This document shows positions 31,401 to 56,668 of a DNA stretch of 64,000 nt, one piece after another. The translations under genes were made by a program, and so were the position numbers. This DNA comes from an uncultured bacterium. GTDB lineage: Bacteria; Patescibacteriota; Patescibacteriia; SG8-24; DYFX01. The notes below the pieces were generated by a model. The model had not been told where the DNA came from and ran no database searches. It saw only the letters and a program-made list of their open reading frames with translations. The stretch covers positions 57,988 through 121,987 of the forward strand of contig CALCDZ010000001.1 of NCBI GenBank assembly GCA_937900255.1, read 5' to 3'. Each line of letters opens with the position of its first letter. Position 1 is the stretch's first letter.

Positions 31401-33173
31401 TCAATCCTGATAGCCGGCGGGGCGTTCGCCGTCCTGGAGCGGCGAGCCGATCCGATAATCGGCGAAGAGGCTGACGTCGACGTCACGTACGCGCGTGTTC
31501 CAGGCGGTGCCGTAGAGCGCCTTGGCTTGCGCTTCGGTCTGGACCCAGCGGAGCAGGCCATCGGGCTCGACCGCGTAGGTCTTCGGATCGCTCTGGATCT
31601 TGATCAGGTAGGCGCCTTCGCGCAACCGGACGTTGCCACCGATCACGAGGCCGCTCAGCTGGTCGGCGGGCACGGTGACGACCTTGGAGAAGTCCTGCCC
31701 GAACCAGGACCGATAGCTGGTCTCGTTCGGGAAGACGTAGCGTTTCCCGTTCTTGTACCAGTAGACGGCTGGGGAGGCAGAGGCCTTGATGAGGTCTCCG
31801 TCCTTCAAAGGAAGGAAACCGACGCCCTGCGGCGCCGAAGCCTGGGCGGTGATAGGAGCCGACTCGATTGAGAGGGCATCCTTGACTCCGTCGGAAACGG
31901 CGAAGCGGCAGGTGACGGGAGTCGCGGTCAGGCCTTCTGCCAGCGTCGCCAGGCGCGCCGGTCGGTCGCCGACCACCGTGACGGTGGAGGGCCTGCCTCC
32001 GCAAGAGGCGGTGACGGAGGTCGGCGCCCGGTCGAGTTCAACGGAAACCTGCGCGGCGGAGTCCGTGAGGCGGGCGACGTCGGGTCCAGAGACGACCCTC
32101 GGGGCCGCGGTAGCCGGCGTCGAGATCATCACCGGGCTGACGACCGAAACGTTCATCACTGCGCCGGCGGCGTTCAGCGCTTCGGCCTTGAGCGTGAGCG
32201 CGCCGTTCACGGCGGGCGGATACCAGACGTAGGCGCCGTCGGTCACCGGCCGTTCGACGATGGGGCGATAGCTGCCGCTGCCGTCCGTCGAGTAACTGAG
32301 CCGTACCTTCACGACGCCCGCTTCGTTGGCGTACCAAGCCAGCGGGCTCGGCGCCCCGGCTTGGAAGGACGGAAGGCCATGGGGCGACGTCAAGGCGAAG
32401 ACGGTATCCTTGGAAGGCGTGGGGTCGTTCGAAGTGCCGGTCCGGAAACTGAAAGGATTCGGATAGCTGCCGAGCGCGACGGAGTTCCCGGCCGCGTCCT
32501 TCGCGTCGATCCCGAAAGTTTCGGCCGCTCCGCGCGCGTACGGCGCATGCGAGATCGTCAGTACGTTTCCGGAGAAGGCGTAGCCCCACCCATCAGGATT
32601 CTTTTCGGAGAAGGGGACGACGCTGCCTGACAAGACCGGCTCGCTGAAGGTGAGGACGAGGTCAGCGTCACGCGAAGCGTCGATCGTCCCGGCGGCTGGG
32701 TTGGAGGAAAGCAGCACCGGCGGAGCCTGGTCGATTTCCGTGTCGGAAGCGCCGGTGTCTCCGATGGCGATCGCCGAAAGTTCGGTCGTGCCGTCGCTCA
32801 CGCCCGCGTTCGCGCCCTGTGGCGCATAGGTGACTTCAAAACCCTGGGCAGAAGTCGTGACCGGCAAGCGCGCGTCGGACTCATCCAACGCGATTTCCAG
32901 CGACGCCGGGTCGCCCGAAACGGCCACGAAGGCGGAGCGGACGGCCAACGCCTGCCCTTGATAGCTCACGCCGATCCCTTTCGTGCCGCGAACGCGCCAA
33001 TCCGTCTTAGCGGGGTTGGCGAAGGCGATGACGGCATGGTCGATCCGTCCGTCGTGATTGAGGTCCCGGAGGGCGATGGACGTGACGTTCCCCGCCGCCG
33101 GGGCGGCAAGGGCCGGCAGGGCGGTCACCGCAAGCAAGGCGGCGAAAGAGCCCAAAAGAAGTTTGTTGCGCAT
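31401..33173 (-). CDS. secreted surface protein with Ig-like regions and a C-terminal ~100-aa domain shared with two other proteins in the window
   Basis: Start at MRNKLLLGSFAALLAVTALPALAA (signal peptide); the ORF-track start at 33329 is an extension. The C-terminus (AVYWYKNGKRYVFPNETSYRSWF...KIQSDPKTYAV...LRWV) matches domains in 54059-56668 and 49982-51391. Confidence 0.65.
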   Translation of the reverse strand: MRNKLLLGSFAALLAVTALPALAAPAAGNVTSIALRDLNHDGRIDHAVIAFANPAKTDWRVRGTKGIGVSYQGQALAVRSAFVAVSGDPASLEIALDESDARLPVTTSAQGFEVTYAPQGANAGVSDGTTELSAIAIGDTGASDTEIDQAPPVLLSSNPAAGTIDASRDADLVLTFSEPVLSGSVVPFSEKNPDGWGYAFSGNVLTISHAPYARGAAETFGIDAKDAAGNSVALGSYPNPFSFRTGTSNDPTPSKDTVFALTSPHGLPSFQAGAPSPLAWYANEAGVVKVRLSYSTDGSGSYRPIVERPVTDGAYVWYPPAVNGALTLKAEALNAAGAVMNVSVVSPVMISTPATAAPRVVSGPDVARLTDSAAQVSVELDRAPTSVTASCGGRPSTVTVVGDRPARLATLAEGLTATPVTCRFAVSDGVKDALSIESAPITAQASAPQGVGFLPLKDGDLIKASASPAVYWYKNGKRYVFPNETSYRSWFGQDFSKVVTVPADQLSGLVIGGNVRLREGAYLIKIQSDPKTYAVEPDGLLRWVQTEAQAKALYGTAWNTRVRDVDVSLFADYRIGSPLQDGERPAGYQD

Positions 33174-33262
33174 ATGCCCATATCTTAGCAGTTTTTCCGA
33201 GACATGGCACATCCACGTTTGAAACGCTGTCCCGACCTTTAAATATGAGGTGCACAGGGGCC

Positions 33263-33291
33263 TTGATGCGCTCGGGCCCCTCGTGTATAGT
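33263..33291 (+). promoter_or_regulatory. sigma-70-like promoter for tRNA-Asn (TTGATG-N17-TATAGT)
   Basis: TTGATG at 33263-33268, a 17-nt spacer, TATAGT at 33286-33291, about 38 nt upstream of the tRNA 5' end. Confidence 0.5.
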
Positions 33292-33329
33292 GTGCCTGGT
33301 ACCGACCGCCCATCCGGGGCGTGAGCCAT

Positions 33330-33404
33330 TCCGAGGTAGCTCAGCGGTAGAGCAGTGGACTGTTAATCCATTGGTCCTGGGTTCGAATCCCAGCCTCGGA
33401 GCCA
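33330..33404 (+). tRNA. tRNA-Asn (anticodon GTT), CCA encoded
   Basis: TCCGAGGTAGCTCAGCGGTAGAGCAGTGGACTGTTAATCCATTGGTCCTGGGTTCGAATCCCAGCCTCGGAGCCA. Acceptor TCCGAGG/CCTCGGA, anticodon loop CTGTTAA, T-loop TTCGAAT. Confidence 0.85.
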
Positions 33405-33441
33405 TGAGCAGGCGTGTGGGGCGACCCACGTGCTTGGTCAA
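33394..33441 (+). repeat. 48-bp direct repeat copy 1 (tRNA-Asn 3' end plus 37 nt downstream)
   Basis: cctcggagccatgagcaggcgtgtggggcgacccacgtgcttggtcaa. Copy 2 at 35157-35204 is identical except for one mismatch. Confidence 0.75.
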
Positions 33442-33443
33442 AA

Positions 33444-33478
33444 GCCAGCCAAAAAATTGGCTGGCTTTTGTGTTTTTT
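33444..33478 (+). terminator. rho-independent terminator after tRNA-Asn
   Basis: GCCAGCCAA-aaaa-TTGGCTGGC hairpin followed by TTTTGTGTTTTTT. Confidence 0.6.
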
Positions 33479-33708
33479 AGGTCGTTCGGATTAGCGACCT
33501 GAACCAGTGTGATTTCGCATTGGAAACGCACCCACGTGGGAATCAAGAACTTTAACCTTATTTCCTGGTTCGAATCCCACGTGTTTTCACGCGCCGTCAC
33601 TGCATGACCTCGGGCGCATTGGTTGACCCAATGCATCAGAAAAGCTACTCTTAAAGGAGGATTTCCAACGTAATTCGATATAGCACCTATTTTGCAAATG
33701 ATAATGTT

Positions 33709-34305
33709 ATGAAGCGAGCATATATTTTGCTGCTTGTCGTTACGTATAGCCTTGGACTGATCGGGGTGACATCCTGGTTTTGGTTGCGGCAAAATCGGAA
33801 TAATCAAACCGGATCTTCCTGCTTCGACTCCGCGATTTTTTGCAGGCCCGCGGAATACATGGCGGAGGACGGCATCGTTTATGCTCATCTGCGTCGGGGC
33901 GAAGAGGAGGCAATGATTGAACGTATCCGCGAGTATTACACTGCAGACTATCGCAAGACGCTACCTAAGAAGTTCGAAGCGGAATTGACCTCTGCCGATA
34001 CTCCTCAGGAAAAGCAAAAGTACGCAGACGCCCTTGCGTCCCTGAAAAAGTGGATTGACGTGGATACGTCCTTTAGCGCGCCTCGTACTTATAAGGACTT
34101 GGACGGCGTCGTGGCTGTGGTCACGGGCGCCTCGGCATTCGTACCGGGCGTAGGATACGTTGAGTCGAGAGCTAACGTTTTTTTCTTCCGCCGCGATGAT
34201 ACGTCGTACCGGCTCGCGGCTGTCACGCCCGTCGGGGAAGATGCAAGGACGTATGAATCGGCGCCGGTCGACATGTTCAAGAGGGGTGTGGGGGCTATAG
34301 AATAG
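33709..34305 (+). CDS. hypothetical membrane-anchored protein (island cargo)
   Basis: 198 aa with an N-terminal TM helix. It sits in an AT-richer segment and is convergent with the CHAP-like gene. Confidence 0.5.
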   Translation: MKRAYILLLVVTYSLGLIGVTSWFWLRQNRNNQTGSSCFDSAIFCRPAEYMAEDGIVYAHLRRGEEEAMIERIREYYTADYRKTLPKKFEAELTSADTPQEKQKYADALASLKKWIDVDTSFSAPRTYKDLDGVVAVVTGASAFVPGVGYVESRANVFFFRRDDTSYRLAAVTPVGEDARTYESAPVDMFKRGVGAIE

Positions 34306-34360
34306 CTTACCGAACAAAAAAGAGGCATTCTGACAGTGGATGCCTCTGATGATCTCGATC

Positions 34361-35041
34361 CTAGTACGTGTACGTGGCCTTGAGCCTGAATCCCTGGAAG
34401 ATGACGTTGGGGAAATAGTTCTGCCGTACCTGCCTGAGTGACATGTCGCCACAACGATTCGTCGTGTGCGCGGCGAGCCAGACGTCGTCCCCGTTTTGTC
34501 CCGTCACGAAGTAGGCGTGATCCCAGCTGCCGTCTCCGGTCCAGTCCGCTAGGATCACATCCCCGGCATAGAAGCGCGGAATGGTCGAGAGGCTCTGTGG
34601 AATGGACACGGCGCCATATGTCCTTCCGGAGTTAAGCATGAAGGTGCGGAACTCGCTGACACCGGCCCAGGAGTTGCTTCGGTTGTGATCACCGGCGCTG
34701 AGGTAGTACCAGGCATCGCTACACCACCAACACGTTCCGCCGACCGGCTGCCAACCGCCGAATGCGAGTGCTTGAGACACGAAGTTGGTGCAGTCGCTTG
34801 AGTATGCCTCGTAAGCCTTGTTGTACCCAGTGGTGAGTGACGTGTTGGTTATTCCGCAGTAGTGCAGCGCGTACGTGACTGCGGAACTCGCGGAATAGGT
34901 GCCGGTCGTGACCGACTGCACCACGGACCCCGTGTCGCTGCCGTCGCTGTCTCCGGACGTCGAGGCGTCCATGTCGGCAACGCACGACATCGATACCGAT
35001 CCAATGAGCGCGAAGACCAAAAGAGCTGTTCCTAGTCGCAT
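34361..35041 (-). CDS. secreted CHAP/NlpC-P60-like cysteine amidase (putative peptidoglycan hydrolase)
   Basis: Signal peptide MRLGTALLVFALIGSVSMSC. Cys motif SDCTNFVSQALAFGGW and downstream His GSWDHAYFV give the papain-fold Cys/His arrangement. RBS GGAAGAGGA before ATG 35041; an alternative start is at 35059. Confidence 0.55.
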   Translation of the reverse strand: MRLGTALLVFALIGSVSMSCVADMDASTSGDSDGSDTGSVVQSVTTGTYSASSAVTYALHYCGITNTSLTTGYNKAYEAYSSDCTNFVSQALAFGGWQPVGGTCWWCSDAWYYLSAGDHNRSNSWAGVSEFRTFMLNSGRTYGAVSIPQSLSTIPRFYAGDVILADWTGDGSWDHAYFVTGQNGDDVWLAAHTTNRCGDMSLRQVRQNYFPNVIFQGFRLKATYTY

Positions 35042-35156
35042 CTGTCCTCTTCCTTTCATGCAATGCCATCGACACTATGTCGATGCGGGAGGAGACTAGC
35101 ACGCGGTTGGCGTTGGCGTCAACCGTGCCTAGGGACTCCAGTGGGAATCGCTACCT

Positions 35157-35204
35157 GGGAGCCATGAGCAGGCGTGTGGGGCGACCCACGTGCTTGGTCA
35201 ATAG
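35157..35204 (+). repeat. 48-bp direct repeat copy 2 (att-like duplicate of the tRNA-Asn 3' end)
   Basis: cctgggagccatgagcaggcgtgtggggcgacccacgtgcttggtcaa, preceded by a degenerate T-arm-like gggaatcgctacc. Confidence 0.75.
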
Positions 35205-35250
35205 ATCATCAAATCATTGGTGGGCTGTTGACTGATAGCAACACGAGTCT

Positions 35251-35847
35251 ATGTGGTTCCACAAGGAGGAAAACCAAATAGATAAAATGTCAAAAGTTTT
35301 TATTGACGAATTTCCTTCTTGGGCGATTAAGCACTCGGCCAAATTGATTTCGGAACTTAAGGAATCACGAAACGAGTATGAGAAGAGTTGGGCCAATCTT
35401 CTCAAGGAACAAAATGCACTTGGAGATACTCTAATTGATTATTTTACGGCCGCGCACGCCATCTACATCAATTCACTGCCTGATGCTTATATTCAATTAT
35501 TGGGAGGTGGCAAAAAAATTGCATCAGCGCTCTCCCTGTGGCCAAGTCGATCCCAAAACTTTTTCCTAATAGCATCGAAGTTCCATCAAAAAGTTTCGTC
35601 TGATGTAGGTCGCGGCGGCAAGAGTTCACTGGTTGAATCATTTGAAAAAGTGTTTTCAAGCGGTGGAAATCTTGAACCCTTGGCTGTGCACATCAGCACT
35701 GCAATTGCGCATTCAATTTCCCAAGAAATGGGCGTGGACACAGATGACCCATTTTCAGCTGCAGGCCTATACTCAACTCTTTTTCGATTATCGCAGGAGC
35801 AACTGGAGTGGGTTTCCAGCCACATTATCAAGCGGGATGCCCGTTGA
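35251..35847 (+). CDS. hypothetical all-alpha protein, low-GC orphan gene
   Basis: 198 aa with markedly AT-rich coding sequence. Lies between the tRNA-end repeat (35157-35204) and the R-M flanking repeat (35935). No family recognised. Confidence 0.5.
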   Translation: MWFHKEENQIDKMSKVFIDEFPSWAIKHSAKLISELKESRNEYEKSWANLLKEQNALGDTLIDYFTAAHAIYINSLPDAYIQLLGGGKKIASALSLWPSRSQNFFLIASKFHQKVSSDVGRGGKSSLVESFEKVFSSGGNLEPLAVHISTAIAHSISQEMGVDTDDPFSAAGLYSTLFRLSQEQLEWVSSHIIKRDAR

Positions 35848-35934
35848 GACCCAAGTACGGCAGTGGCCCACAAATTGACCCCTTCAAAAGCCCTAAGGTG
35901 CCCACAGGAATTGGGCACCAGACCCACCAGCGGA

Positions 35935-36040
35935 GCCAGCAAGACCCATCACGCAAGTGGCGGGTCTTTGCTTTCCGTAAGTCGATTTCCCTTTGGGGGT
36001 GTCGTCTGCTAAAATTGGTCAACATCAGCCAAGGCCGCCT
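35935..36040 (+). repeat. ~105-bp imperfect direct repeat, copy A (immediately upstream of hsdM)
   Basis: gccagcaagacccatcacgcaagtggcgggtctttgctttccgtaagtcgatttccctttgggggtgtcgtctgctaaaattggtcaacatcagccaagg... is about 90% identical to copy B. Confidence 0.75.
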
Positions 36041-36070
36041 CTTTTTTGCTGAAATCAGCGACATACCGCT

Positions 36071-37522
36071 ATGTTCGAGCAAGCCTTCAAGAACATCGAC
36101 GACATCCTCCGCACGGATTCCGGTTCGGCTACGGAGCTGGACTACGTGGAGCAGACTTCCTGGATCATTTTCCTGAAGTACCTGCATGACCTGGAGCTCG
36201 AGAACGCGAAGAAGGCGGAGCTCTCCGGCAAGAAGCACGAGCATACCTTTGAACCGAAGTTCCGCTGGGATACCTGGGCCTGCCCACGGACACCCGACGG
36301 CAAGATCGACCACCATAAAGCGCTCGACGGTAAGGACCTCAAGGAGTTCGTCGACGAAAAGCTTTTCCCGTACCTCAAGAAGTTCAAGAGCGCAGATCCG
36401 GACACCGTCGAATACAAAGTCGGTGAGATCTTCAGCGAACTCAAGAATAAAATCACGAGCGGCTACAAGCTCCGCGAGATTTTGAACATCGTCTGCGATT
36501 TGCACTTCCAGCGTAGCGAGGAGAAGCATGAGCTCTCGCATCTGTACGAGGCCCGAATCGCCAAGATGGGCAACGCGGGACGGAACGGCGGCGAGTACTA
36601 CACGCCTCGCCCCCTCATCCGCACCATCGTGCAAGTGGTCAGGCCTGAAATCGGCGACAAGATCTACGACGGCGCCTGCGGCTCAGCCGGCTTCCTGGTC
36701 GAGGCCTTCAAGTACCTGACGGAAAACAGCGCCAAGCTCTCCACGGCCGAAATGCGCACGCTCCAGACCAAGACCTTCTACGGCAAGGAGATCAAGTCCT
36801 TGGCCTACATCATCGGCGTGATGAACATGATCCTGCACGGGGTCGAGGCGCCGCACATCCGGCACATGGACACGCTGTCCCAGAACGTCAACGACATCCA
36901 GGAGAAGGACCGCTTCGAGGTCATCCTGGCCAACCCGCCGTTCGGCGCCGGTATCGGCAAGGAAGTCCAGCAGAACTTCCCGATCAAGACCGGCGAGACG
37001 GCCTACCTGTTCCTCCAGCACTTCATCAAGAGCCTCAAGGCCGGCGGCCGGGCGGGCATCGTCATCAAGAACACCTTCCTTTCCAACACCGATGACGCCT
37101 CCGTGCGCCTGCGCAGGCACTTGCTTGAGAGCTGCAATCTCCACACCGTGCTGGACTTGCCGGGCGGCGTCTTTTCAGGCGCTGGGGTGAAAACTGTGGT
37201 GCTGTTCTTCGAGAAAGGCGCGCCCACCAAGAAGGTCTGGTACTACCAGCTCAAGCTCGACCGCAATCTCGGCAAGACCAACCCGATCAACGAGAAGGAT
37301 CTGGCGGACTTCGTGAAGCTCCAGAAGACCAAGGCCGATTCCTCCAACGCCTGGTCGGTCAAGGTTTCGGATCTCGATCAGGAAACGCTTGATTTGTCGG
37401 TGAAGAACCCTAAGGGCACCGAGACTGTCGCGCACCGCAGCCCCAAGGACATTCTCAAGGAGATGGTGAAATTGGATGCAGAGAGCGCGAAAGCGTTGGC
37501 TGGTATCAAGGGGTTGCTATGA
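36071..37522 (+). CDS. hsdM: type I restriction-modification system methyltransferase subunit
   Basis: MFEQAFKNIDDILRTDSG... N-terminus. N6-adenine MTase motif NPPFG. AdoMet motif DGACGSAGFL. Confidence 0.9.
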   Translation: MFEQAFKNIDDILRTDSGSATELDYVEQTSWIIFLKYLHDLELENAKKAELSGKKHEHTFEPKFRWDTWACPRTPDGKIDHHKALDGKDLKEFVDEKLFPYLKKFKSADPDTVEYKVGEIFSELKNKITSGYKLREILNIVCDLHFQRSEEKHELSHLYEARIAKMGNAGRNGGEYYTPRPLIRTIVQVVRPEIGDKIYDGACGSAGFLVEAFKYLTENSAKLSTAEMRTLQTKTFYGKEIKSLAYIIGVMNMILHGVEAPHIRHMDTLSQNVNDIQEKDRFEVILANPPFGAGIGKEVQQNFPIKTGETAYLFLQHFIKSLKAGGRAGIVIKNTFLSNTDDASVRLRRHLLESCNLHTVLDLPGGVFSGAGVKTVVLFFEKGAPTKKVWYYQLKLDRNLGKTNPINEKDLADFVKLQKTKADSSNAWSVKVSDLDQETLDLSVKNPKGTETVAHRSPKDILKEMVKLDAESAKALAGIKGLL

Positions 37523-38679
37523 GTGGTGAGTGGCCCACGAGAAAATTGGGCGCTGTTTTGCAGATAATCAATGGTTACGCGTTTGATTCCAAACATTTTG
37601 ATGCCACAAATGGAATGCCGCTGATTAGGATCCGTGATTTAAAATCTGGTACTCACACGGAAACGCGATTTGCAGGGGCATACGACAAAAAATATATAGT
37701 TAAAGCAGGAGATTTGCTCATTGGAATGGATGGTGAGTTTGGTTGCTACGAATGGGGTGGTGAACCCGGCTTATTAAATCAGCGAGTATGCAAGTTACAG
37801 TCGTTTGCAACATCGCTAGCGCCGCGCTTCTTATTTTACGGAGTTAACAGTTACCTTAAGGACATTGAGAATGAGACTGGATATACCACAGTAAAGCACC
37901 TGTCTTCAAAACAAATCCTCGACATCGAATTTCCAATTCCGCCGCTACCGGAGCAACGGCGGCTCATTAAGTTACTCGACCAAGCTTTTTTGGATATCGC
38001 CATCGCCAAGGCGAATGCCGAAAGGAACTTGCAAAATGCGCGCGATCTTTTTGAGAGCCGTCTCAATGAGATTTTTACCAAGCGGGGACTGGGGTGGGTG
38101 GAAAAACGGCTCGATCAGATTGGAACAACACAAACCGGTTCGACTCCGTCGACTTCCGATAAAGAAAACTACGGCAACTTCATTCCTTTTATAAAGCCGG
38201 CAGACTTTAATGAAGATGGCTCATTGAACTATGGCAATGCTGGTCTTACCGAAAAGGGATTATTGAAAGCGCGCAAAGTGCGAGCTGGATCAGTCCTAAT
38301 GGTGTGCATCGGTGCGACTATCGGGAAATGTGGTTATTGTGATCGTGATGTAACCACAAATCAGCAAGTTAACTCACTCACCCCATTCAAAGGTACTTTC
38401 TACAAGCTTGTTTATTATCAGATGCGTACCAGAGACTTTCAAAGACGCATGCTTTTGAGTTCTGCTCAGGCCACGTTGCCGATAATAAACAAGTCTAAGT
38501 GGGAGGCTTTAACAATTTTGCTGCCACAAAAGACGGGAGAACAATCACGTATCGTTATGGAGCTGGCCGGCTTGGACAAAGAAGCAGCCCGCCTCAAGTC
38601 CACCTATCAGAAAAAGCTCCACGCATTGGAAGCGCTAAAGAAATCCTTGCTCAACAAGGCTTTTCGTGGTGAGCTGTAG
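37519..38679 (+). CDS. hsdS: type I restriction-modification system specificity subunit
   Basis: 386 aa with two target-recognition-domain halves separated by conserved helical repeats. ATGA overlap with hsdM. AT-rich relative to hsdM and hsdR. Confidence 0.85.
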   Translation: MSGEWPTRKLGAVLQIINGYAFDSKHFDATNGMPLIRIRDLKSGTHTETRFAGAYDKKYIVKAGDLLIGMDGEFGCYEWGGEPGLLNQRVCKLQSFATSLAPRFLFYGVNSYLKDIENETGYTTVKHLSSKQILDIEFPIPPLPEQRRLIKLLDQAFLDIAIAKANAERNLQNARDLFESRLNEIFTKRGLGWVEKRLDQIGTTQTGSTPSTSDKENYGNFIPFIKPADFNEDGSLNYGNAGLTEKGLLKARKVRAGSVLMVCIGATIGKCGYCDRDVTTNQQVNSLTPFKGTFYKLVYYQMRTRDFQRRMLLSSAQATLPIINKSKWEALTILLPQKTGEQSRIVMELAGLDKEAARLKSTYQKKLHALEALKKSLLNKAFRGEL

Positions 38680-38685
38680 GCGCAT

Positions 38686-40989
38686 ATGAACGAAGCCGAA
38701 ACGCGCGCGGAATACGTCGACCCCAAGCTTAAGGCGAGCGGGTGGGGCGAAATCGAAGGATCGAAGGTCCTGCGCGAGTTTCGGATCACCGAGGGCAAGA
38801 TCCAGACGGGCGGCACGCGCGGGAAGCCGGAGATCGCCGATTATGTGCTGGTCTACAAGAACCGCAAGCTCGCCGTCGTCGAAGCTAAACCGGAAGGGAT
38901 GGAGGCGACGGAGGGCGCAGTCCAGGCCAAGGCCTATGCGGCGAAGCTCGGTTTGGAATACACCTACGCCACCAATGGTCGGGACATCTACGAGGTGTCG
39001 ATGAAGACCGGGCACGAAGGTGCCGTGGGCAGCTTCCCGACGCCTGACGAACTCTGGGCCCGCACCTTCGCCGAGCAGAACGCCTGGCGCGAGAAGTTCG
39101 CCGCCGTCCCGACGGAGGGCGAAAAGGGCCGCCGGTATTATCAGGAGCTGGCCATTGACAACGCGCTCGAGGCCGTGGCCGAGGGCAAGAAGCGGATCCT
39201 GGTGACCATGGCCACCGGTACCGGCAAGACGGCCGTGGCGGCGCAGTTCTCCTGGAAGCTGTTCCAGTCGCGTTGGAACCTCCGGGGCGACGGCGCGCGC
39301 CGGCCGAGGATCCTGTTCCTGGCCGACCGCAACATCCTCGCGGACCAGGCCTTCACGAACGACTTCGCGATCTTCGAGCGCGACGCCCGGGTGCGCATCA
39401 ACCCGCTCGACATCCGCAAGAAGGGCGGCGTGCCGACCGGCGGCAGCGTCTTCTTCACCATCTTCCAGACGTTCATGAGCGGGCCGGGCGATACGCCGTA
39501 CTTCGGCGAGTACCCGCCGGATTTCTTCGACCTCGTCATCATCGACGAGTGCCATCGCGGCGGCGCCAACGACGAGGGCAACTGGCGCGGCATCTTGGAA
39601 TACTTCGCCCCGGCCGTGCAGCTCGGTCTGACGGCGACGCCGAAGCGCAAGGACAACGTGGATACTTATAGATATTTCGGCGAGCCGGTCTACACGTATT
39701 CCCTCAAACAAGGCATCAATGACGGCTTCCTGACGCCGTTCAAGGTCAAGCGCATTCAGACGACGCTGGACGAGTACGTCTACACCTCGGACGACCAGGT
39801 CATCGAGGGCGAAGTCGAGGAGGGCAAGATCTACGAGGAAGTTGACTTCAACAGGATCATCTTCATCAAGGAACGCGAAGCCAAGCGCGTGCGCATCGTG
39901 CTGGACGAGATCGACCAGGACGAGAAGACGATCGTCTTCTGCGCGACCCAGGACCACGCCTTGGCCGTCCGCGACCTGATCAACCAATACAAGGACAGCC
40001 GAGACCCGAATTACTGCGTCCGCGTGACCGCCAACGACGGCGCGCGCGGCGAGCAGTTCCTGCGGGAGTTCCAGGACAACGAGAAGACCATCCCGACCGT
40101 CCTGACCACTTCGCAGAAGCTCTCGACGGGCGTGGACGCCCGCAACGTCCGCAACATCGTGCTGATGCGGCCGGTCAACTCCATGATCGAGTTCAAGCAG
40201 ATCATCGGGCGCGGCACGCGGCTTTTCGACGGCAAGGAGTATTTCACCATCTACGACTTCGTCGACGCCTATCACCACTTTTCGGACCCGGAGTGGGACG
40301 GCGAACCGATCGAGGAAACGGAAGAGAAACCCCGCCACTCCAAGGAGTCCCAAGGAGATCCCAAGAAACCGCGCCAGGTGTCCGAACAGCCGGAAGACCA
40401 GCCGGCGAAAAAGCTTCGGATCAAGTTGCGTGACGGCAAGGAACGCGAGATCCAGCACATGATCTCGACCTCGTTCTGGAGCGCCGACGGCAAACCGCTT
40501 TCGATCCAGGAGTTCATGGACAACCTGTTCGGGGCGATGCCTGAGTTCTTCAGAGACGAGGAGGAGCTCCGCAAGATCTGGTCCGACCCGCGCACGCGCC
40601 AGGCCTTCCTCGATAAGATCGCAGAACTCGGCTACGGCAAGGATGCGCTGGAGACGCTCCAGAAGATGATCGACGCTGAGGACAGTGACCTGTTCGACGT
40701 GCTTTCGTATGTCTCGTTCCTGACGCCGCCGATCACGCGCGAGGAGCGCGTCAGCCACGCGAAGGATCGCATCTACCAAGGCCTCGGCGAACTCCAGCAG
40801 GATTTCCTCGGGTTCGTCCTCGGGAAGTACGAGGAGAGCGGGGTCGACGAGCTCGGCGAGCACCAACTGCCGATCCTGCTGAACCTGAAATACCAGGCCA
40901 TCGCTGACGCCGAGCAGGCGCTCGGGAATGTCGGCACAATCCGCACGCTCTTCCTGGATCTGCAGAGGAAGCTGTATGCTAAGATGTGA
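38686..40989 (+). CDS. hsdR: type I restriction enzyme R subunit (shorter than usual at 767 aa)
   Basis: N-terminal MNEAETRAEYVDPKLKASGW, helicase motifs ATGTGKT and DECHRG, then a C-terminal helical region. Confidence 0.85.
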   Translation: MNEAETRAEYVDPKLKASGWGEIEGSKVLREFRITEGKIQTGGTRGKPEIADYVLVYKNRKLAVVEAKPEGMEATEGAVQAKAYAAKLGLEYTYATNGRDIYEVSMKTGHEGAVGSFPTPDELWARTFAEQNAWREKFAAVPTEGEKGRRYYQELAIDNALEAVAEGKKRILVTMATGTGKTAVAAQFSWKLFQSRWNLRGDGARRPRILFLADRNILADQAFTNDFAIFERDARVRINPLDIRKKGGVPTGGSVFFTIFQTFMSGPGDTPYFGEYPPDFFDLVIIDECHRGGANDEGNWRGILEYFAPAVQLGLTATPKRKDNVDTYRYFGEPVYTYSLKQGINDGFLTPFKVKRIQTTLDEYVYTSDDQVIEGEVEEGKIYEEVDFNRIIFIKEREAKRVRIVLDEIDQDEKTIVFCATQDHALAVRDLINQYKDSRDPNYCVRVTANDGARGEQFLREFQDNEKTIPTVLTTSQKLSTGVDARNVRNIVLMRPVNSMIEFKQIIGRGTRLFDGKEYFTIYDFVDAYHHFSDPEWDGEPIEETEEKPRHSKESQGDPKKPRQVSEQPEDQPAKKLRIKLRDGKEREIQHMISTSFWSADGKPLSIQEFMDNLFGAMPEFFRDEEELRKIWSDPRTRQAFLDKIAELGYGKDALETLQKMIDAEDSDLFDVLSYVSFLTPPITREERVSHAKDRIYQGLGELQQDFLGFVLGKYEESGVDELGEHQLPILLNLKYQAIADAEQALGNVGTIRTLFLDLQRKLYAKM

Positions 40990-41120
40990 CGACGTGGGTA
41001 CGATCGTCGATTGCTGATTCGCCGGAATCAATAAACCGAATCCGCCCCTGTGAGGCGGGGGAGATGGACGTACTCGGCCTGTCTCCGTATCGAGGTTTCA
41101 ACGTCCTCCACGACGTGGAA

Positions 41121-41226
41121 GCCAGCAAGACACATCACGCAAGTGGTGTGTTTTGCTTTCCATAAGTCGATTTCCCTTTGGGGGTGTCGTCTGCTAAAAT
41201 TAGTCGACATCAGCCAAGACGCATTT
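41121..41226 (+). repeat. ~105-bp imperfect direct repeat, copy B (immediately downstream of hsdR)
   Basis: gccagcaagacacatcacgcaagtggtgtgttttgctttccataagtcgatttccctttgggggtgtcgtctgctaaaattagtcgacatcagccaagac... Confidence 0.75.
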
Positions 41227-41240
41227 TTTCCAAGTCCTAG

Positions 41241-41705: not shown

Positions 41706-41779
41706 CTTGCGAACGTTCCCGCCACACGGCATGGCACCGAACGTTTGATATTTCGGCCTCTTTCGGGCAAAATAGGGCC

Positions 41780-49981: not shown

Positions 49982-51391
49982 TCAGTTGGAGGCGAGCGTC
50001 GCCTGGATCGATGCATCGCTGGGCGCCGAAGGGGCCGTGACGGCCGGGCCGAGCGGATGCAAGAGCAGCGCATCAGCCGTGGTCCATACGACGCGCTTCC
50101 ACGAGTACCCGAGCTGCTCGAAGGCCTGGCCCGAGACGATCGGGCGGCGTTGTCCGTTCGAAATCACGTAGACCGTCCGATCGGCTCCGGAGGCGGTGAC
50201 GAGATCGCCGTCCTTGAAGCGGATCGGGTCAGTCGATTCGTATTTTGCGAGCGTCGAAGGCGAGACCTTCGTAGGCTTCTTTCCGGGATAGTCCGCTTTC
50301 ATGATGGCATCGTCGACGACAGGGGATTTCCGGCCGTTCTCCACGAAATAGACGGCTCCAGTCTTCGAGTCCTTCAGGAAGGCGCCGGTCGGATAAGCGC
50401 TTTTCAGGGTGATCATGTCGCCATCCTCGTAGCCGTCCAGGTCGGCCGGGTCGACATCATCGATCTCCTCCGGATTGAAGCCGATCGAACGGAAGACCGT
50501 CATTGACTGGATCGGCCTCTTCCGGTCGCCGACGAGGAGGTAGACCGTTCCGGCGGGAACACGCACCAAAGAGTACTCCGCGAACCTGATAGGCGCACCT
50601 TCCTGGTAAGCGGCCAGGACCGCATCCGAGACCTGGATGATCTTCCCGGCATCGACACGGGTGTGCAGGGCGCTTTTGTTTTCAAAGCGCCTCTTCAAGC
50701 CGCCTTGAATCAGGTACACCTTGCCGTCGGGGCCGGAAAGCGCCGAGCCGTCCGGATAGTCGAGCGCGAACCAATCGGACCAGATGGACTTCAGGTTCTG
50801 GTTGCCATGGAGATGCGGCGTATACGTATAGAGGATGGCCGTGGCCGTGTTCGCCGGCGTGACATCGCGCCCGTCGATCGTGGCCTGCACGCCCGGGAAA
50901 AAGCCGAAGGTGCGTTTCGCGTTCATCCGCTCCTGGTCGTAAATGAAACGGACGAAGGCGGCCGCATTCACGATCTGCGAGGTGAACCCGCGATATCGTT
51001 GCCAGCTCGGGTCGTCGCATGTCGAACCGTCCGGTCGGCCATATCCGGCCGCCCAGTCGATCTGGCAACGGCTTGGATCGCGGTCTTCCACGAGGCTTTG
51101 TTCCTTCTGGATGAGGGCCAGCAGGAAACGCGGGTTCACCCCCGATGCCTTGCCATAATAGTCGATGATGTACCCGGGCGATCTCTGGGAACCGTCCAGG
51201 TCGGGGAAGGTCATCTTCGCCAATGCGCCTCCATGCGCTTCCAGGAACTTCTGCGAAAAACCGGCCGGCACGTCCGTGTCGGTCAAGTCCTGGTCGGAGA
51301 GGACATAGCCTGGATCCGTATCGGCGGCGCGGGCCGGCAACGCTCCGGCCAGCAGGCAGATTTGGAGCAAGATCAGCGGGAATTTCTTCAT
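49982..51391 (-). CDS. secreted protein with four tandem copies of a ~55-aa G-x-V-Y-(L/F)-(I/V)-x-x-G-x-(K/R)-R-P-(I/V) repeat
   Basis: Signal peptide MKKFPLILLQICLLAGALPARA. Repeats GKVYLIQGGLKRRF / GTVYLLVGDRKRPI / GAVYFVENGRKSPV / RTVYVISNGQRRPI. Confidence 0.65.
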   Translation of the reverse strand: MKKFPLILLQICLLAGALPARAADTDPGYVLSDQDLTDTDVPAGFSQKFLEAHGGALAKMTFPDLDGSQRSPGYIIDYYGKASGVNPRFLLALIQKEQSLVEDRDPSRCQIDWAAGYGRPDGSTCDDPSWQRYRGFTSQIVNAAAFVRFIYDQERMNAKRTFGFFPGVQATIDGRDVTPANTATAILYTYTPHLHGNQNLKSIWSDWFALDYPDGSALSGPDGKVYLIQGGLKRRFENKSALHTRVDAGKIIQVSDAVLAAYQEGAPIRFAEYSLVRVPAGTVYLLVGDRKRPIQSMTVFRSIGFNPEEIDDVDPADLDGYEDGDMITLKSAYPTGAFLKDSKTGAVYFVENGRKSPVVDDAIMKADYPGKKPTKVSPSTLAKYESTDPIRFKDGDLVTASGADRTVYVISNGQRRPIVSGQAFEQLGYSWKRVVWTTADALLLHPLGPAVTAPSAPSDASIQATLASN

Positions 51392-51446
51392 ATCTGCCGA
51401 TAGGATAGCATGACGTCAGGTCTCCTGACAATCGTGCGCGGTCATC

Positions 51447-52655
51447 ATGCCGACGACCGCGTTGCCCTTCCCGTCCATCCCGGATACAATCTCTCATATG
51501 CTGATTTCCCGCGCTCATTTCCGCACGATCGGCCTCGTGGGGCTGAACTTGATCGTCGCTGTTGCCGTACACTCCGCTTGGACGGCATGGCTGCCCGCAG
51601 CTGACGCTGCCCAAAAGCCGTCCTCGACAGCCGTCCTCGACAGCGAGGAACAGTTGATTCGCATGGTCGCGAAAGCATCGCCGGCCGTCGTTTCCATCCT
51701 GATAGAAAAGCGGCAGCAGACCGCCCCCGGAGAGGAAGGCGGTTCGGGATCATCGACGGACGGCCTCGCCGAGGTCGGTCGCGGGACCGGTTTCCTGGTC
51801 GATCCGGGCGGCATGATCGTGACGAATCGCCACGTGGCAGGAGACCGGGCGGCGGCGTACACGGTCTTCTTGACGGATGGGCGCTCCTTCAAGGCGGATG
51901 TCGTCGACATCGACCCCGTCAATGACCTGGCCCTGCTCAAGATCGATGCGAACGGCCTGCCGACCGTGCCGCTCGCGGCGGCGGACGACGTACGGATCGG
52001 GCAGACGACCGTCGCGATCGGGAACGCCTTGGGAAAATACGCGAACACCGTCACGCGCGGCATCCTTTCCGGCCTCGGCAGGGACCTCGACGCCACCGAC
52101 GGCCTCACCGGGACGTCCGAACGGCTTGAAGAGCTCCTGCAGACCGACGCCGCTATCAACGCCGGAAATTCCGGTGGGCCGCTCCTGAACAGTCGCGGTG
52201 AAGTCATCGGCGTCGATACGGCGGTGGAGAACGGAGCGCATGGCCTCGGATTCGCGATTCCCGTTTCCGAAGTCCGGAAGGTGCTCGGCTCGTACGCCCG
52301 GTACGGAGCCATCGCCCGGCCTCGTTTCGGAGTGCGGTACGTGGCGATCACGCCCGAACTGGTCCGGGAGCGCGCGCTCCCGTATACATACGGCGCACTG
52401 GTCGACGCGGATGACCCGAACGACGCTTCCGTCCTGCCCGGCAGCCCCGCGTATGCGGCGGGGGTACGCCAAGGCGACATCATCCTGGAAGTCGACGGCA
52501 AGAGGCTGGAAGGGAAGCGCACGCTCGCCAAGGTCATCCAATCGAAAGAAGTCGGTGACGCGGTGACGCTGAAGATCGCGCGCGGCGGCGAGCTCCTGGC
52601 GCTTTCGGCGCAGCTCGATGCCTTTCCGCCGTACGCGCCCGCGCAGACCCGGTAA
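51447..52655 (+). CDS. htrA: HtrA/DegP-family serine protease with PDZ domain
   Basis: Catalytic triad context TNRHV, DLALLKI, GNSGGPLLN, plus a C-terminal PDZ. An alternative start is at 51498. Confidence 0.85.
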   Translation: MPTTALPFPSIPDTISHMLISRAHFRTIGLVGLNLIVAVAVHSAWTAWLPAADAAQKPSSTAVLDSEEQLIRMVAKASPAVVSILIEKRQQTAPGEEGGSGSSTDGLAEVGRGTGFLVDPGGMIVTNRHVAGDRAAAYTVFLTDGRSFKADVVDIDPVNDLALLKIDANGLPTVPLAAADDVRIGQTTVAIGNALGKYANTVTRGILSGLGRDLDATDGLTGTSERLEELLQTDAAINAGNSGGPLLNSRGEVIGVDTAVENGAHGLGFAIPVSEVRKVLGSYARYGAIARPRFGVRYVAITPELVRERALPYTYGALVDADDPNDASVLPGSPAYAAGVRQGDIILEVDGKRLEGKRTLAKVIQSKEVGDAVTLKIARGGELLALSAQLDAFPPYAPAQTR

Positions 52656-52686
52656 GAAACGCCTGACTCATCCGTCTCAACAAGGC

Positions 52687-54015
52687 ATGACACCTATGCG
52701 GAACCTCTCGCGTTTCTCCATCGCCTTCTTCTTCCTCATTTCCATCTCCGGCGCTGCCGGGGTCGCGCACGCGGAAGAGCCGTATTCCGATTCTCTCGGC
52801 CTTTCCGTCCCTCTTGCGGCACCTGCCGCGGAAACCTCCGCATCGGACCAGCCCGCGACCTCGGATGCCGGTAACAGGGCGGCGCTGCCTTCGGAGCCGC
52901 CGTTGATTTCCGCGATCCAAAGGGCCCGCACCCTTTTGCGGGAACGGATCGACACCGATGTCGAGCGGCGGACGAAGCCTGAGGTGGTGAGCGGGTACGA
53001 CGTCTGGGTGAACGTGACCCTGGCCGTATGGGATGCCCGCACTGACGGGATTTCCTTGATCGAAGCGCGCAAGAACGGCACGAAACTGAAGTTCGAAGGC
53101 CTGGAAGACCCCGGCATCAGGGTGCGTTTCAATAACGGCGTCAATACGCAGTTCGCGGTCGACGACGGCGACAAGGTCGTCGTAGCCATCCGTTACCCGA
53201 TCTTCAAGGACGTCACCGTAAAAAAGAAGCATCCTCGGTATGAGCTGCAGGATGTCGTGTACGCGCCGTATTCTCCCGCATTGCGGCAGCCGGAAGTCGT
53301 TTCCTATGGAAGGGGCACCTTGAAAAGCTACATCACCCAGGCGTTCGACGCATATCGGGCCGCAGGCATCCGTTCGCGTGCGTTCCCCGACAAGCTGATG
53401 GCCGACGTGGTCGACCCACAGCTCGTCGAATCGATCGCCCTCATCGAGCACTTGAACGTGGGAGCGCTGGACGGACAGAACGCCCAGGCGGCCCTGGAGT
53501 CCGTGTACGTCACCGTGGCGGCCAACCAGGAAGACGCGTTCGATTATTCGCGTTCTCCCGCCGGAGCGCTCGGGATGGTCCAGTTCATCCCGAGCACCTA
53601 TGCACTCATGGCCAAACGCGCGGAGCTCGGCCTCATCAAGGACTTCACGGCCGGCATGTCCGATCCGGTGAACGCCATCAAGGCGGAGATCGCCTACCTC
53701 GATGCGGAACTGGCCTCGATGCCGCTCTCCGTCAAAGACCTGTACTACGTGGATAACGACCGGGTGAAGGAGTATCTCGCGGCCGGTTACAATGCCGGCG
53801 ATACGCGGGTCAAACGCGCCATCGCCTTGTGGGGCGACGCCTGGTCCGAGACGCATGAAGAGGAGATCGCCACGCTCGCCAAGAAGAAAGGGACGCGCAG
53901 CGCGGCCGTGAAGGCGATGAAGAACGCGACCTTGCGTGCGGAGACCATCGGCTACGTGCGGAAGATGCGCCAGGCGCTCAAGATGCTGAGACCGCCGGAA
54001 CTTCCCATGACCTGA
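52687..54015 (+). CDS. secreted SLT (lytic transglycosylase)-like domain protein
   Basis: Signal peptide MTPMRNLSRFSIAFFFLISISGAAGVAHA. SLT-like SPAGALGMVQFIPSTYA, but the usual catalytic E-S is replaced by D-Y-S. Confidence 0.55.
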   Translation: MTPMRNLSRFSIAFFFLISISGAAGVAHAEEPYSDSLGLSVPLAAPAAETSASDQPATSDAGNRAALPSEPPLISAIQRARTLLRERIDTDVERRTKPEVVSGYDVWVNVTLAVWDARTDGISLIEARKNGTKLKFEGLEDPGIRVRFNNGVNTQFAVDDGDKVVVAIRYPIFKDVTVKKKHPRYELQDVVYAPYSPALRQPEVVSYGRGTLKSYITQAFDAYRAAGIRSRAFPDKLMADVVDPQLVESIALIEHLNVGALDGQNAQAALESVYVTVAANQEDAFDYSRSPAGALGMVQFIPSTYALMAKRAELGLIKDFTAGMSDPVNAIKAEIAYLDAELASMPLSVKDLYYVDNDRVKEYLAAGYNAGDTRVKRAIALWGDAWSETHEEEIATLAKKKGTRSAAVKAMKNATLRAETIGYVRKMRQALKMLRPPELPMT

Positions 54016-54058
54016 CGCGCGCCGGACGTGATAGGCCCGTGTGATACACTGTGGAAAT

Positions 54059-56668
54059 ATGCCGAGACATCGTCTGTACGCCGCCAGTGCGCTCCTGGCA
54101 GGGTTGTTGCCTTTTTCCGTTCATGCGTCCGGCCTCATCAAGGGTTCTTCTTCTGCCGTCTATTACGTCGAGGAAGGCAGGCGGTATGTCTTCCCGAACG
54201 AAAGCGTCTACCGTTCTTGGTATCAGGATTTCTCCGGGGTCGAGACCGTCGACGACCGCGAACTGGCTTCATACCTGATCGGAGGGAACGTGACGTATAA
54301 GCCCGGTTCGCGGCTGGTCAAGATCCAGAGCGACCCGAAAGTCTACGCGGTTGGTCCCGGAGGGGCCTTGCGATGGATAGCGTCGGAAGACGCGGCGCGC
54401 GCCCTCTACGGCGACGGATGGCCGAAGCGCGTGGACGACATCCCGGACGGGCAGTTTCCGGACTATCGCCAAGGGTCGTCGGTCGCGGGCGCGCCCGATT
54501 TCGACATGAACGCCGCAAAGGCGGTCTCTTCCATTTCCGACGATCTGGCGGCACGTACAGGCGCTCCGGCGCCGCAGGATTTCACGGCGGTCAGGTCCGG
54601 GGCCTGGAGCGAGAATTCCACGTGGGGAGGAAAACGCCCTTCGTCCGGCGCGCACGTGACGATCCCCTCGGGCATCAAGGTCCTTTATGACCTGGCGGAT
54701 GCTCCCAGCGTGAAATCGCTTGATGTCGATGGTGCTCTTGAATTTTATCCGGGCATGTCGACCAGGCTTTCCGTCCGGAAGATCGCCGTACGGGGCGCGC
54801 TGACGATCGGCACGAGCGAAGCGCCTCTTCCTTCCGACGTGCAAGCGGAGATCTTCTTGACCGCCGATGCGCCGGGAGACGATGGATTCGTCATCGACGG
54901 CGGGCGTCTTTCCTTGCATGGAGCGGTGAGCGGTCCGTCTTGGACCCGGCTCTCAGCGCCAAGCGCGAACGGCGCTCGCTCGCTGGAAGTCGATCCGCCG
55001 GTCCGATGGCCGGTCGGCGGCGAAGTCGCGGTGCTTGGAGCGAAGGCGGGATCGGCACCGGAAATCCGCAAGATCGCCGCCATCGAAGGCGCGAAGATCG
55101 TCCTGGACGCGCCCCTCGCGGCAACACATCGGTCCGAAGAAGGGCTGCGCACGGAAATCGTCCTCTTGTCCCGCAACGTGACCATAAGAGGGGTAGGGGC
55201 AGGCAACGGAAGTTATGTCCGCGCTTTCGATCGTGCGAGCGTCGACGTATCCAGCGTCGCGTTCCGGGATCTCGGACGGAAGGGGACGGAAGGCCAGTAT
55301 CCGCTCGGGTTGGAAGGGCTGGAGGCCGGTTCGATCAAGGACAGCGTCATCCGATCTTCCGGCAACCGCTGCCTGACGCTCCGCCGTACGAGCGGCGTCA
55401 CGGTCGAAGGGGTCGTAGGCATCGACGCCTACGGCCATTGCTTCGCGACTGCCGAAGGAACGGAAACGGGGAACGTCTTCAGGCATGACCTGGCTGCGTA
55501 CATACATCCGGGCGCGATGGCGGAAGACGCGATTCCGGCCGCATTTTTCATGAAGAATCCGGATAACGTCCTTTCGGAAAATGTCGCGGTCGGCTCCGAA
55601 GGGCACGGTTACTGGTATGACCTGCCGGAAAACGCCATGAAGGACGGCGGTGCCGCGCTCAAGCCGCGCGAGACGGCGCTCGGCGCGTTCATGGGGAATT
55701 ACGCGCGGGGAAACAGGAAAGCCGGCCTCTATCTCGACGATGAGGCGAAGGGGCGCCTGAATTACGCGCCGGAACGGAAAGCAGTCTTTTCCAAGTTCTC
55801 ATCCGTCATGAACGGCGAGCGCGGTTTCTGGATCCGCGGATCGAACATCGAGGTTTCCGGGGCCTATCTGGCCGAAAATCCGATCGGCGGGACGTTCGCG
55901 GCGTTCGGGGCGGCGCTCAAGGATTCCGACGTCCTTGGGCGGCTAAAGGGGTCCGAGGCGCCAGGTCCCGCCCGATACGGTTTCACATATCTTGACGGTC
56001 CGGTCAGCGTGCAGGACGTGCGCTTCTCCCGTTTTGTCGCGCCTTCGGCGGCGCTCGGTTTCGAAGAGAAGGATCCTGCGTTGCCTGACCCTCGGAACAG
56101 TCTGCGCGGCGTGTCGTTCACGGATGCGCGGGCTTGGCGTTTCCAGGACCCGGTGACGCCGGGAGATGCCATGGCCATGGTGCGTGACCTCGACAACGGG
56201 GACGTGATCGCCGGAAGATCCGATTTCCTCGGGCCCCACTGCGTGCCGGACAAGGACAGCGGCGGCGTACGTTGCGCAGACGCCTATGCGCAGGTATCGG
56301 TGGCGCTCCGGGATTCCCCGGGCGACAAGAACATCACCTTCACCAACCTCTCGACGAAGGCTTCGGTGACGCTCGTTCCCGGCCCGGCTTTCGACGGACG
56401 CTACGCCTATGCCACCGTCGCCGAGGGAGGGTCTTATCGCGTGGAGGTCCCGAACGTGAACACGGTACGCGTGGAGTACGACGGCTTGAGCGCCCCTCTG
56501 AAGATACGCATCCCGGCAAGCCTCTCTGCGCAGGTGATTTCGGACGGGAGACTTTTGCCGAAAAAAGAGCTTCCGGACCTCGTACCGGGCGCATGGGCCT
56601 ATGACGCCGCCGCGAAAGAAGCGGCGCTTTGGCTCGCGCAGGGAGACGCTTACGAACTCAGCCGTTGA
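54059..56668 (+). CDS. secreted G8-domain / parallel beta-helix protein with an N-terminal shared ~100-aa domain
   Basis: Signal peptide MPRHRLYAASALLAGLLPFSVHASG. N-terminal AVYYVEEGRRYVFPNESVYRSW...KIQSDPKVYAV...LRWI. G8-like WSENSTWGGKRPSSGAHVTIPSGIKVLYD...LDVDGALEF, then PbH1-like repeats. Confidence 0.65.
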   Translation: MPRHRLYAASALLAGLLPFSVHASGLIKGSSSAVYYVEEGRRYVFPNESVYRSWYQDFSGVETVDDRELASYLIGGNVTYKPGSRLVKIQSDPKVYAVGPGGALRWIASEDAARALYGDGWPKRVDDIPDGQFPDYRQGSSVAGAPDFDMNAAKAVSSISDDLAARTGAPAPQDFTAVRSGAWSENSTWGGKRPSSGAHVTIPSGIKVLYDLADAPSVKSLDVDGALEFYPGMSTRLSVRKIAVRGALTIGTSEAPLPSDVQAEIFLTADAPGDDGFVIDGGRLSLHGAVSGPSWTRLSAPSANGARSLEVDPPVRWPVGGEVAVLGAKAGSAPEIRKIAAIEGAKIVLDAPLAATHRSEEGLRTEIVLLSRNVTIRGVGAGNGSYVRAFDRASVDVSSVAFRDLGRKGTEGQYPLGLEGLEAGSIKDSVIRSSGNRCLTLRRTSGVTVEGVVGIDAYGHCFATAEGTETGNVFRHDLAAYIHPGAMAEDAIPAAFFMKNPDNVLSENVAVGSEGHGYWYDLPENAMKDGGAALKPRETALGAFMGNYARGNRKAGLYLDDEAKGRLNYAPERKAVFSKFSSVMNGERGFWIRGSNIEVSGAYLAENPIGGTFAAFGAALKDSDVLGRLKGSEAPGPARYGFTYLDGPVSVQDVRFSRFVAPSAALGFEEKDPALPDPRNSLRGVSFTDARAWRFQDPVTPGDAMAMVRDLDNGDVIAGRSDFLGPHCVPDKDSGGVRCADAYAQVSVALRDSPGDKNITFTNLSTKASVTLVPGPAFDGRYAYATVAEGGSYRVEVPNVNTVRVEYDGLSAPLKIRIPASLSAQVISDGRLLPKKELPDLVPGAWAYDAAAKEAALWLAQGDAYELSR

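Follow-up and report, generated by a model that had tools for sequence, protein, structure and literature searches.

A module of about 57 residues with a predicted EccB-repeat or PlyCB-like fold in three secreted proteins of a Patescibacterium, and its putative role in wall binding

The window analysed here is a stretch of 64,000 nucleotides (nt) from an uncultured bacterium of the Patescibacteriota, and it contains three genes, called A, B and C below, whose secreted products have in common a module of about 57 residues that occurs in eight copies in total. The eight sequences cut from these proteins can be aligned over their entire length and are laid out as two units in A, two in B and four in C. 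In A and B, two of these units in tandem make up a domain of about 120 residues, and the same unit stands four times in C. A hidden Markov model (HMM) of two units matches residues 344-451 of C with an independent E-value (i-E) of 1.6e-4, so that C reads as two pairs. The genes and units are as follows, in window positions and with lengths in amino acids (aa).

31401..33173, minus strand: gene A, 590 aa, secreted surface protein with Big_5 at aa 148-245 and a C-terminal two-unit module
31434-31805: pair in A, aa 457-580
31623..31805, minus strand: unit A1, aa 457-517
31434..31622, minus strand: unit A2, aa 518-580, second in the pair and divergent
49982..51391, minus strand: gene C, 469 aa, secreted protein with a lysozyme-like N-terminal domain and four units
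50762..51304, minus strand: N-terminal domain of C, aa ~30-210, lysozyme-like with a predicted GH73-like fold
50036-50755: four tandem units in C, aa 213-452
50579..50755, minus strand: unit C1, aa 213-271
50390..50578, minus strand: unit C2, aa 272-334
50213..50389, minus strand: unit C3, aa 335-393, which together with C4 matches phrog_9616
50036..50212, minus strand: unit C4, aa 394-452
54041..56668, plus strand: gene B, 875 aa, with an N-terminal two-unit module, G8 at aa 194-305 and a CEMIP-type beta-helix at aa 390-563
54125-54484: pair in B, aa 29-148
54125..54298, plus strand: unit B1, aa 29-86
54299..54484, plus strand: unit B2, aa 87-148

The Big_5 domain of A (Pfam, E 2e-6) is immunoglobulin-like (Ig-like), and the exact 590-aa product of A is on record in the protein collection, in which the exact GTG-start product of B has no match. 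Gene B is listed with this GTG start (MIHCGNMPRH..., window 54041-54061), and an in-frame ATG six codons downstream (MPRHRLYAASALL...) is equally plausible. On direct reading, the N-terminus of A, MRNKLLLGSFAALLAVTALPALA, looks like a signal peptide, and a hydrophobic, signal-peptide-like stretch begins each of A, B and C, which points to an extracytoplasmic location for all three.

A first-pass annotation, made from the letters of the window alone, had described a domain of 90-100 aa in these proteins. All three of the places that it gave contain the module, with the correction that the copy in B extends about 60 nt past position 54420. The four copies that it reported in C are indeed four tandem units; they are not shortened forms of a 90-100-aa domain, since the domain of A and B is itself a pair of units. 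Its long motif (AVY..FPN..SW, KIQSDPK.YAV, LRW[IV]), said to occur three times, has a literal match in A and B only, which makes two. A short core, V-Y-x-h-x(1-3)-G-x-[KR], is found at six places when the window is translated in all six frames, each of them within A, B or C.

The similarity of A and B is evident from direct comparison: residues 461-577 of A and 32-146 of B are 56% identical over 117 aa (BLASTP, composition-adjusted, E 7e-36), and the two stretches are 61% identical at the DNA level. Alignments of A or B with C by BLASTP are weak (E 1e-3 to 3e-3), and that of B covers two consecutive C repeats, from which it was suspected that the A/B domain is a duplication. Profiles cross-validated against all 836 six-frame open reading frames (ORFs) of the window connect the three proteins in both directions. 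With an HMM of just the four C units, A (4e-4) and B (4.8e-4) come out at the top, the next ORF scoring 0.78, while an HMM of the A/B units alone retrieves C at 8e-9 and one of the first A/B unit alone does so at 4e-6. Profile-profile comparison with hhalign, using independent family alignments of 57 C homologues and 42 A/B-domain homologues, gives E 2e-6 to 7e-10 for the C units against the first A/B unit, 1e-6 for C4 against the second A/B unit, 6e-6 for the first against the second A/B unit and 6e-10 to 3e-19 for the C units against each other. These pairwise and profile comparisons bear out the earlier proposal of a module common to three secreted proteins and show that the similarity is not one of low-complexity segments and is statistically supported across the whole unit. 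HMM scans of all six-frame ORFs found no further copy in the window at E <= 1.

AlphaFold2 models of the B pair (predicted local distance difference test score, pLDDT, 94.8; predicted template modelling score, pTM, 0.83) and of full-length C (pLDDT 90.7) give every unit the same order of elements, strand-strand-strand-helix-strand-helix, that is, a beta meander of three strands followed by a helix, one more strand and one more helix. The best fold matches of the models are the repeats of EccB1 and the cell-wall-binding domains (CBDs) of phage lysins. Published work has described the EccB repeats as a four-stranded sheet with two helices that resembles PlyCB (PMC4769845), and the CBD of LysIME-EF1 as a four-stranded sheet capped by two helices, which forms a tetrameric ring needed for activity (PMC7098653). 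The EccB repeats pair into an elongated, rigid structure (PMC4769845). The module, which the first-pass annotation could not name, can now be named by its modelled fold as EccB-repeat or PlyCB-like, through the structure prediction that the annotation had itself proposed; no Pfam model covers the A/B form.

Sequence profiles lead to the same relative. Against the PDB, a profile of the eight window units placed EccB1 at just E 0.06-0.09, below designed 'Pizza' beta-propellers, which were the top matches (E 5e-5). The Pizza candidates were rejected: what matches is each time a 19-residue motif, G-x-V-Y-V-x-D-x-G, whose score adds up over six identical blades, and they are absent with a deeper profile of 78 unit sequences. 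For this deeper profile EccB1 is both the top and the sole significant match (4kk7, E 8e-6; 3x3m, E 1e-5), with R1 aligned over the whole unit and R4 in part; the Mycobacterium smegmatis structure 5cyu follows at E 0.035. Homology of the unit to the EccB repeats is regarded as probable. The Pfam EccB model PF05108 matches C at E 0.0023 (17.1 bits, below the 27-bit cut-off). It gives weak matches for 6 of the 57 members of the C family, and among 72 multi-unit relatives it matches 17, the best at E 8.8e-17. NCBIfam returned nothing for A, B and C beyond a sub-threshold EccB equivalog. The Pfam wall-binding families LysM, SH3b, SLH, CW_binding_1/2, PG_binding, SPOR and Cpl-7 have no match in A, B and C at E <= 1, nor in the 42 A/B-type proteins at E <= 0.1. 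A full-length profile of the C family had no match in the PDB. YdcF (3ca8), met as a possible relative of C in a PDB sequence search, was dropped, being not significant (E 0.088) and unsupported by the fold search.

In the fold search of the model, the N-terminal domain of C resembles lysozymes of the GH73 type. Without a Pfam domain and about 465 aa long, the proteins of the C family number at least 586, and in the alignment of 57 homologues the motifs K-E97-Q-S-L and Y-T-Y-T-P-H are invariant or nearly so. As modelled, C is laid out like a wall hydrolase with four putative binding units behind it, and if the module is a wall binder, this conserved family would be marked as a candidate autolysin.

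The two-unit form is abundant in Patescibacteria, where it is carried by many unrelated secreted proteins. A single-sequence search gave 60 clusters, mostly of proteins of about 180-190 aa, the few source-named ones coming from Patescibacteria, and several stand-alone pair proteins of about 180 aa have a lipoprotein-type N-terminus on direct reading. A profile search, in which 8,000 candidates were scored, raised the number to at least 1,574 clusters, with the pair standing alone or fused to a cupredoxin (the 'plastocyanins' of about 265 aa), a CAP domain or the N-terminal domain of purple acid phosphatases. In species-representative genomes, at least 594 loci with the pair were confirmed; the informative titles among the loci listed name Uhrbacteria, Falkowbacteria, Buchananbacteria, Parcubacteria, Minisyncoccota and 'Patescibacteria group'. 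Many metagenome-assembled genomes (MAGs) with the pair and with synteny to the window are titled 'uncultured Gammaproteobacteria bacterium', which is probably a placeholder or a wrong label.

Detailed analysis of 80 of the at least 594 loci yielded 106 ORFs with the pair, which usually follows the signal peptide directly, is sometimes C-terminal and occurs twice in one protein. Often two or three adjacent genes each have a pair. Further partners are Ig-like domains (Big_7; Big_1 / invasin D3), CAP and subtilase, and many partners have no Pfam match. Among the matches of the profile search, the commonest partner is a cupredoxin/plastocyanin-like domain (e.g. P0192, P0204, P0237), a partnership that would imply that copper redox proteins are tethered to the wall in organisms regarded as lacking respiratory chains. 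In other Patescibacteria (L044, 1758-5269; L064, 2247-5170; L045, 571-3746) three consecutive genes each begin with the pair, and this recurring set encodes proteins of about 180 aa, of about 470 aa with an Ig-like tail and of about 262 aa with a cupredoxin.

The unit itself is spread more widely than the pair. Searched against 1.84 billion clusters at 50% identity, the 78-sequence profile gave 13,919 representatives at E <= 1e-3, of which 8,475 also reach E <= 1e-10; the best 150 have 4 to 17 units each. A Pfam scan of 72 of the best 150 showed that the commonest partners act on peptidoglycan (SpoIID in 12, Amidase_2 in 8, M23 in 3, CHAP and Glucosaminidase in 1 each), others being subtilases, CAP, nuclease, LGFP and Ig-like domains. 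One protein annotated as SpoIID/LytB, from a MAG of the Actinomycetota, has the unit, which is thus not confined to Patescibacteria.

Phages are a further source of relatives. The phage family phrog_9616 (118 positions) matches residues 332-448 of C at E 5e-15 and the pair of B at E 0.0045. Foldseek aligns a protein of Rhodococcus phage Weasels2 (A0A1I9SA71) with the whole pair (E 6e-6, template modelling score 0.64/0.70), picks out proteins of two units and about 100-115 aa from phages of Rhodococcus and Streptomyces (such as Streptomyces phage LukeCage), and gives weaker single-unit matches in phage lysins of the M23, CHAP, lysozyme and amidase types. A tblastn search with C units 3-4 found no match among 50,697 GenBank phage records, though phrog_9616 matches. 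Two IMG/VR contigs predicted to be viral (L081 and L082) also encode the pair. L082 encodes a terminase small subunit (phrog_4102, E 1e-22). At 3363-4819 of this contig, the gene for a pair protein of 296 aa starts within the last 4 nt of a lysozyme-like gene; the lysozyme-like gene has a weak match to SLT_3 (E 7.7e-5, 23.5 bits, under the 27-bit cut-off). On L081 (584-4973), an SLT gene above the cut-off lies one gene away from the pair gene, on the opposite strand.

In the window, genes C and B flank two further genes:

51447..52655, plus strand: HtrA-type serine protease with PDZ, between C and SLT (Pfam Trypsin_2, E 6e-32; PDZ)
52618..54015, plus strand: SLT lytic transglycosylase, ending 25 nt upstream of gene B (Pfam SLT, E 7e-9)

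The order across 49982-58708 is C (minus strand), HtrA protease, SLT, B, a membrane protein of 140 aa and pgi (glucose-6-phosphate isomerase), and the start of B 25 nt after SLT suggests co-transcription. This order is conserved in relatives (L001-L007), where the B orthologues are 54-60% identical; those of about 870 aa with identical layout are found in L001, L002 and L004-L007. Proximity to SLT was considered as a general trait of pair carriers and proved not to be general among the 80 loci, homologues of the window SLT adjoining B orthologues only (L001-L007). Other neighbours examined were a LigB/Memo-like gene, a flippase and Wzy_C. An ARAGORN call of tRNA-Val (GAC) at 42628-42701 lies within the flippase ORF (41780-43219, Polysacc_synt, E 8e-32); either the call is false or the ORF is shorter than listed. 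Elsewhere in the window, the stretch 33330-41750 has a lower guanine-plus-cytosine content (53-59%, compared with about 63% elsewhere) and begins right after a tRNA-Asn (33330-33404). It holds a gene for an Amidase_6 protein (34361-35059), the full gene set of a type I restriction-modification system (hsdM 36071-37522, hsdS 37519-38679, hsdR 38686-40989) and a YdeI/OmdA-like gene (41241-41705), and looks like an island inserted at the tRNA.

The function that best fits these data is binding to the cell wall. The module most likely binds peptidoglycan or a wall glycan and so holds secreted enzymes and surface proteins on the wall, a reading to which we give a probability of roughly 60%. It draws on the fold that the models have in common with lysin CBDs, on the fusions to wall hydrolases in C and across the superfamily, on the apparent extracytoplasmic location and on promiscuous placement, the pair being found at either terminus of such unrelated domains as cupredoxin, CAP, subtilase, Ig-like and G8/beta-helix. 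The conserved cluster of C, HtrA, SLT and B, and the lysozyme-like or SLT genes near the pair on L082 and L081, also speak for it. The bacterium has a single membrane, and the polymer bound by the pair would be one of its envelope, peptidoglycan or a glycan linked to the wall; in C, the units would target the putative glycan-cleaving domain to its substrate in the manner of the binding domain of a lysin. The earlier suggestion of a wall- or surface-anchoring, or partner-binding, module on otherwise unrelated secreted proteins thus gains support from the fold, the hydrolase fusions, the GH73-like domain of C and the placement at either terminus. We infer both the ligand and the binding, and oligomerisation or partner binding may also apply.

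Several points weigh against wall binding. In the case of EccB, peptidoglycan binding is just a hint, according to the authors of the EccB1 study (PMC4769845). The link to EccB has its own weak places: each EccB1 repeat alone is weak against the unit profile (i-E 0.6-0.9), the significance being that of their sum, for which reason the homology is not treated as proven, and PF05108 matches none of the 42 A/B-type proteins. Lysin domains act as homo-oligomeric rings (PMC7098653 for the LysIME-EF1 tetramer), and the cupredoxin and CAP partners have no obvious need for a wall. A uniform basic charge on the module was sought and not found: the isoelectric point (pI) ranges from 5.1 (B pair) to 9.2 (A pair), and with net charge so variable there is no uniform electrostatic signature.

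Alternatives differ in how much of this evidence they can accommodate. A chance resemblance or compositional artefact might be read from the pairwise BLASTP matches of A or B to C, at just E 1e-3, and from the spurious Pizza matches of the eight-unit profile through a 19-residue motif. It is excluded, however, by the A/B alignment (E 7e-36), by cross-validated HMMs and independent profile-profile comparisons that are significant over the entire unit, by homologues in the thousands and by confident models with one fold in every unit, while the Pizza matches themselves vanish with the deeper profile. A scaffolding role, in which the units pack within or between chains into rigid stalks or oligomers and the module is no wall binder, is unlikely, although much is consistent with it. 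The EccB repeats pack pairwise into a rigid, elongated periplasmic scaffold of the type VII system for which no ligand is demonstrated (PMC4769845), and the CBD of LysIME-EF1 must tetramerise for activity, lysin binding domains forming rings (PMC7098653). The A/B pair is modelled as a single compact body (pTM 0.83), relatives have 4-17 units in a row, and the adjacent genes that each have a pair (L044, L045, L064) make hetero-oligomers possible. Scaffolding would leave unexplained the recurrent fusion to peptidoglycan hydrolases and the free-standing putative lipoproteins of about 180 aa, which have little in them besides the pair; moreover, oligomerisation and wall binding are compatible, as lysin domains do both.

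The wall or surface glycans bound could also be those of a host, with the pair delivering hydrolases (C, and B with the neighbouring SLT) and adhesins (A) for attachment or attack. Patescibacteria are episymbionts, commonly attached to other cells, and Actinomycetota are known hosts of some. The pair is abundant in Patescibacteria, often with several per genome; degradative domains are among the fusion partners of pair or units (GH73-like in C, G8/beta-helix in B, and a subtilase); and the unit superfamily extends to Actinomycetota and to predicted structures of actinophage proteins. We nevertheless consider a host-directed role quite unlikely. C is near-universal, of a single architecture, 40-75% identical and located beside housekeeping genes in the window, and it resembles a housekeeping autolysin more than a host-range factor; on the predicted phage contigs, for their part, the pair would have to bind the wall of the Patescibacterium that the phage infects. 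Both the scaffolding and the host-directed role are compatible with the fold. Retaining wall binding as the preferred function, one may extend it, tentatively and as less likely than not, to the proposal that the two-unit form is the main wall-anchoring device of Patescibacteria, in the role that LysM, SLH or sortase signals have in other single-membrane bacteria. Were this so, the wall would be decorated with cupredoxins, CAP proteins, proteases, glycan-degrading enzymes and adhesins, phages would have borrowed the pair for lysis, and EccB, given the homology of its repeats to the module and their recurrent fusion to peptidoglycan hydrolases, would anchor the type VII machine to peptidoglycan, which since 2016 has been no more than a hint.

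The genomes of Patescibacteria are small, and unannotated secreted proteins predominate in them. Reading the pair as a likely wall binder would account for part of the at least 1,574 protein clusters, including many 'plastocyanin' and 'hypothetical' surface proteins, within a unit superfamily that is largely invisible to Pfam save through the EccB model. The fusions with SpoIID, amidase, M23, CHAP and glucosaminidase domains lend comparative support to the putative binding of peptidoglycan by the periplasmic repeats of EccB. In the literature, we found no paper linking PlyCB or EccB to Patescibacteria or the candidate phyla radiation, and none on 'EccB-like' or 'PlyCB-like' modules or on Patescibacterial wall-binding modules; for EccB with SpoIID, only papers on type VII secretion were found. 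The fold and the idea are already known, and the Patescibacterial pair is an unnamed, sizeable subfamily outside the coverage of Pfam, not a new kind of biology.

Among known systems, LysM, SH3b, SLH, choline-binding repeats, CW_binding_2 and Cpl-7 are alike in being small repeated modules at either end of unrelated secreted proteins, which they retain on the wall, the role proposed here for the pair. They differ in having no Pfam sequence match here, in their absence from the fold matches and in their fold. The proteins of phrog_9616, Weasels2 and LukeCage have the two-unit arrangement of the A/B pair, but they are stand-alone proteins of about 100-115 aa without assigned function, unlike the fused copies in the window. 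The repeats R1-R4 of EccB (PF05108; 3x3m, 4kk7) come close in several respects: they are units of about 50-57 residues with a four-stranded sheet and two helices, packed in pairs, four per protein as in C, and extracytoplasmic. Their Gene3D superfamilies are probably 3.30.2390.20 and 2.40.50.910. The proteins around the repeats are different. A, B and C are without the N-terminal cytoplasmic segment, transmembrane helix and central core domain of EccB, having instead signal-peptide-like N-termini and a Big_5, G8/beta-helix or lysozyme-like domain, and the best PF05108 scores among the window proteins fall far short of what a true EccB would give. The units of EccB are part of a secretion machine, whereas those described here are appended to enzymes and surface proteins.

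The lysin domains PlyCB (4f87), Lys170 CBD (7d55) and LysIME-EF1 CBD (6ist) likewise have a four-stranded sheet capped by two helices. They have no detectable sequence similarity to the module and form homo-oligomeric rings of single units, unlike the covalent tandem pairs seen here, and most carriers of the module are cellular secreted proteins. Wall binding is demonstrated for the lysin domains, whereas for the module it is what we infer. The gene order of L082 recalls the two-gene lysin PlyCA/PlyCB, although the lysozyme-like match on that contig is weak. C may offer a further parallel: lysin CBDs have a peptidoglycan-cleaving catalytic partner, a part that the GH73-like domain may play in C, and they act as four (or eight) copies together. 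With four units in one chain, where Lys170 and LysIME-EF1 have theirs in four separate chains, C would be the covalent equivalent of their 1+3 chain arrangement.

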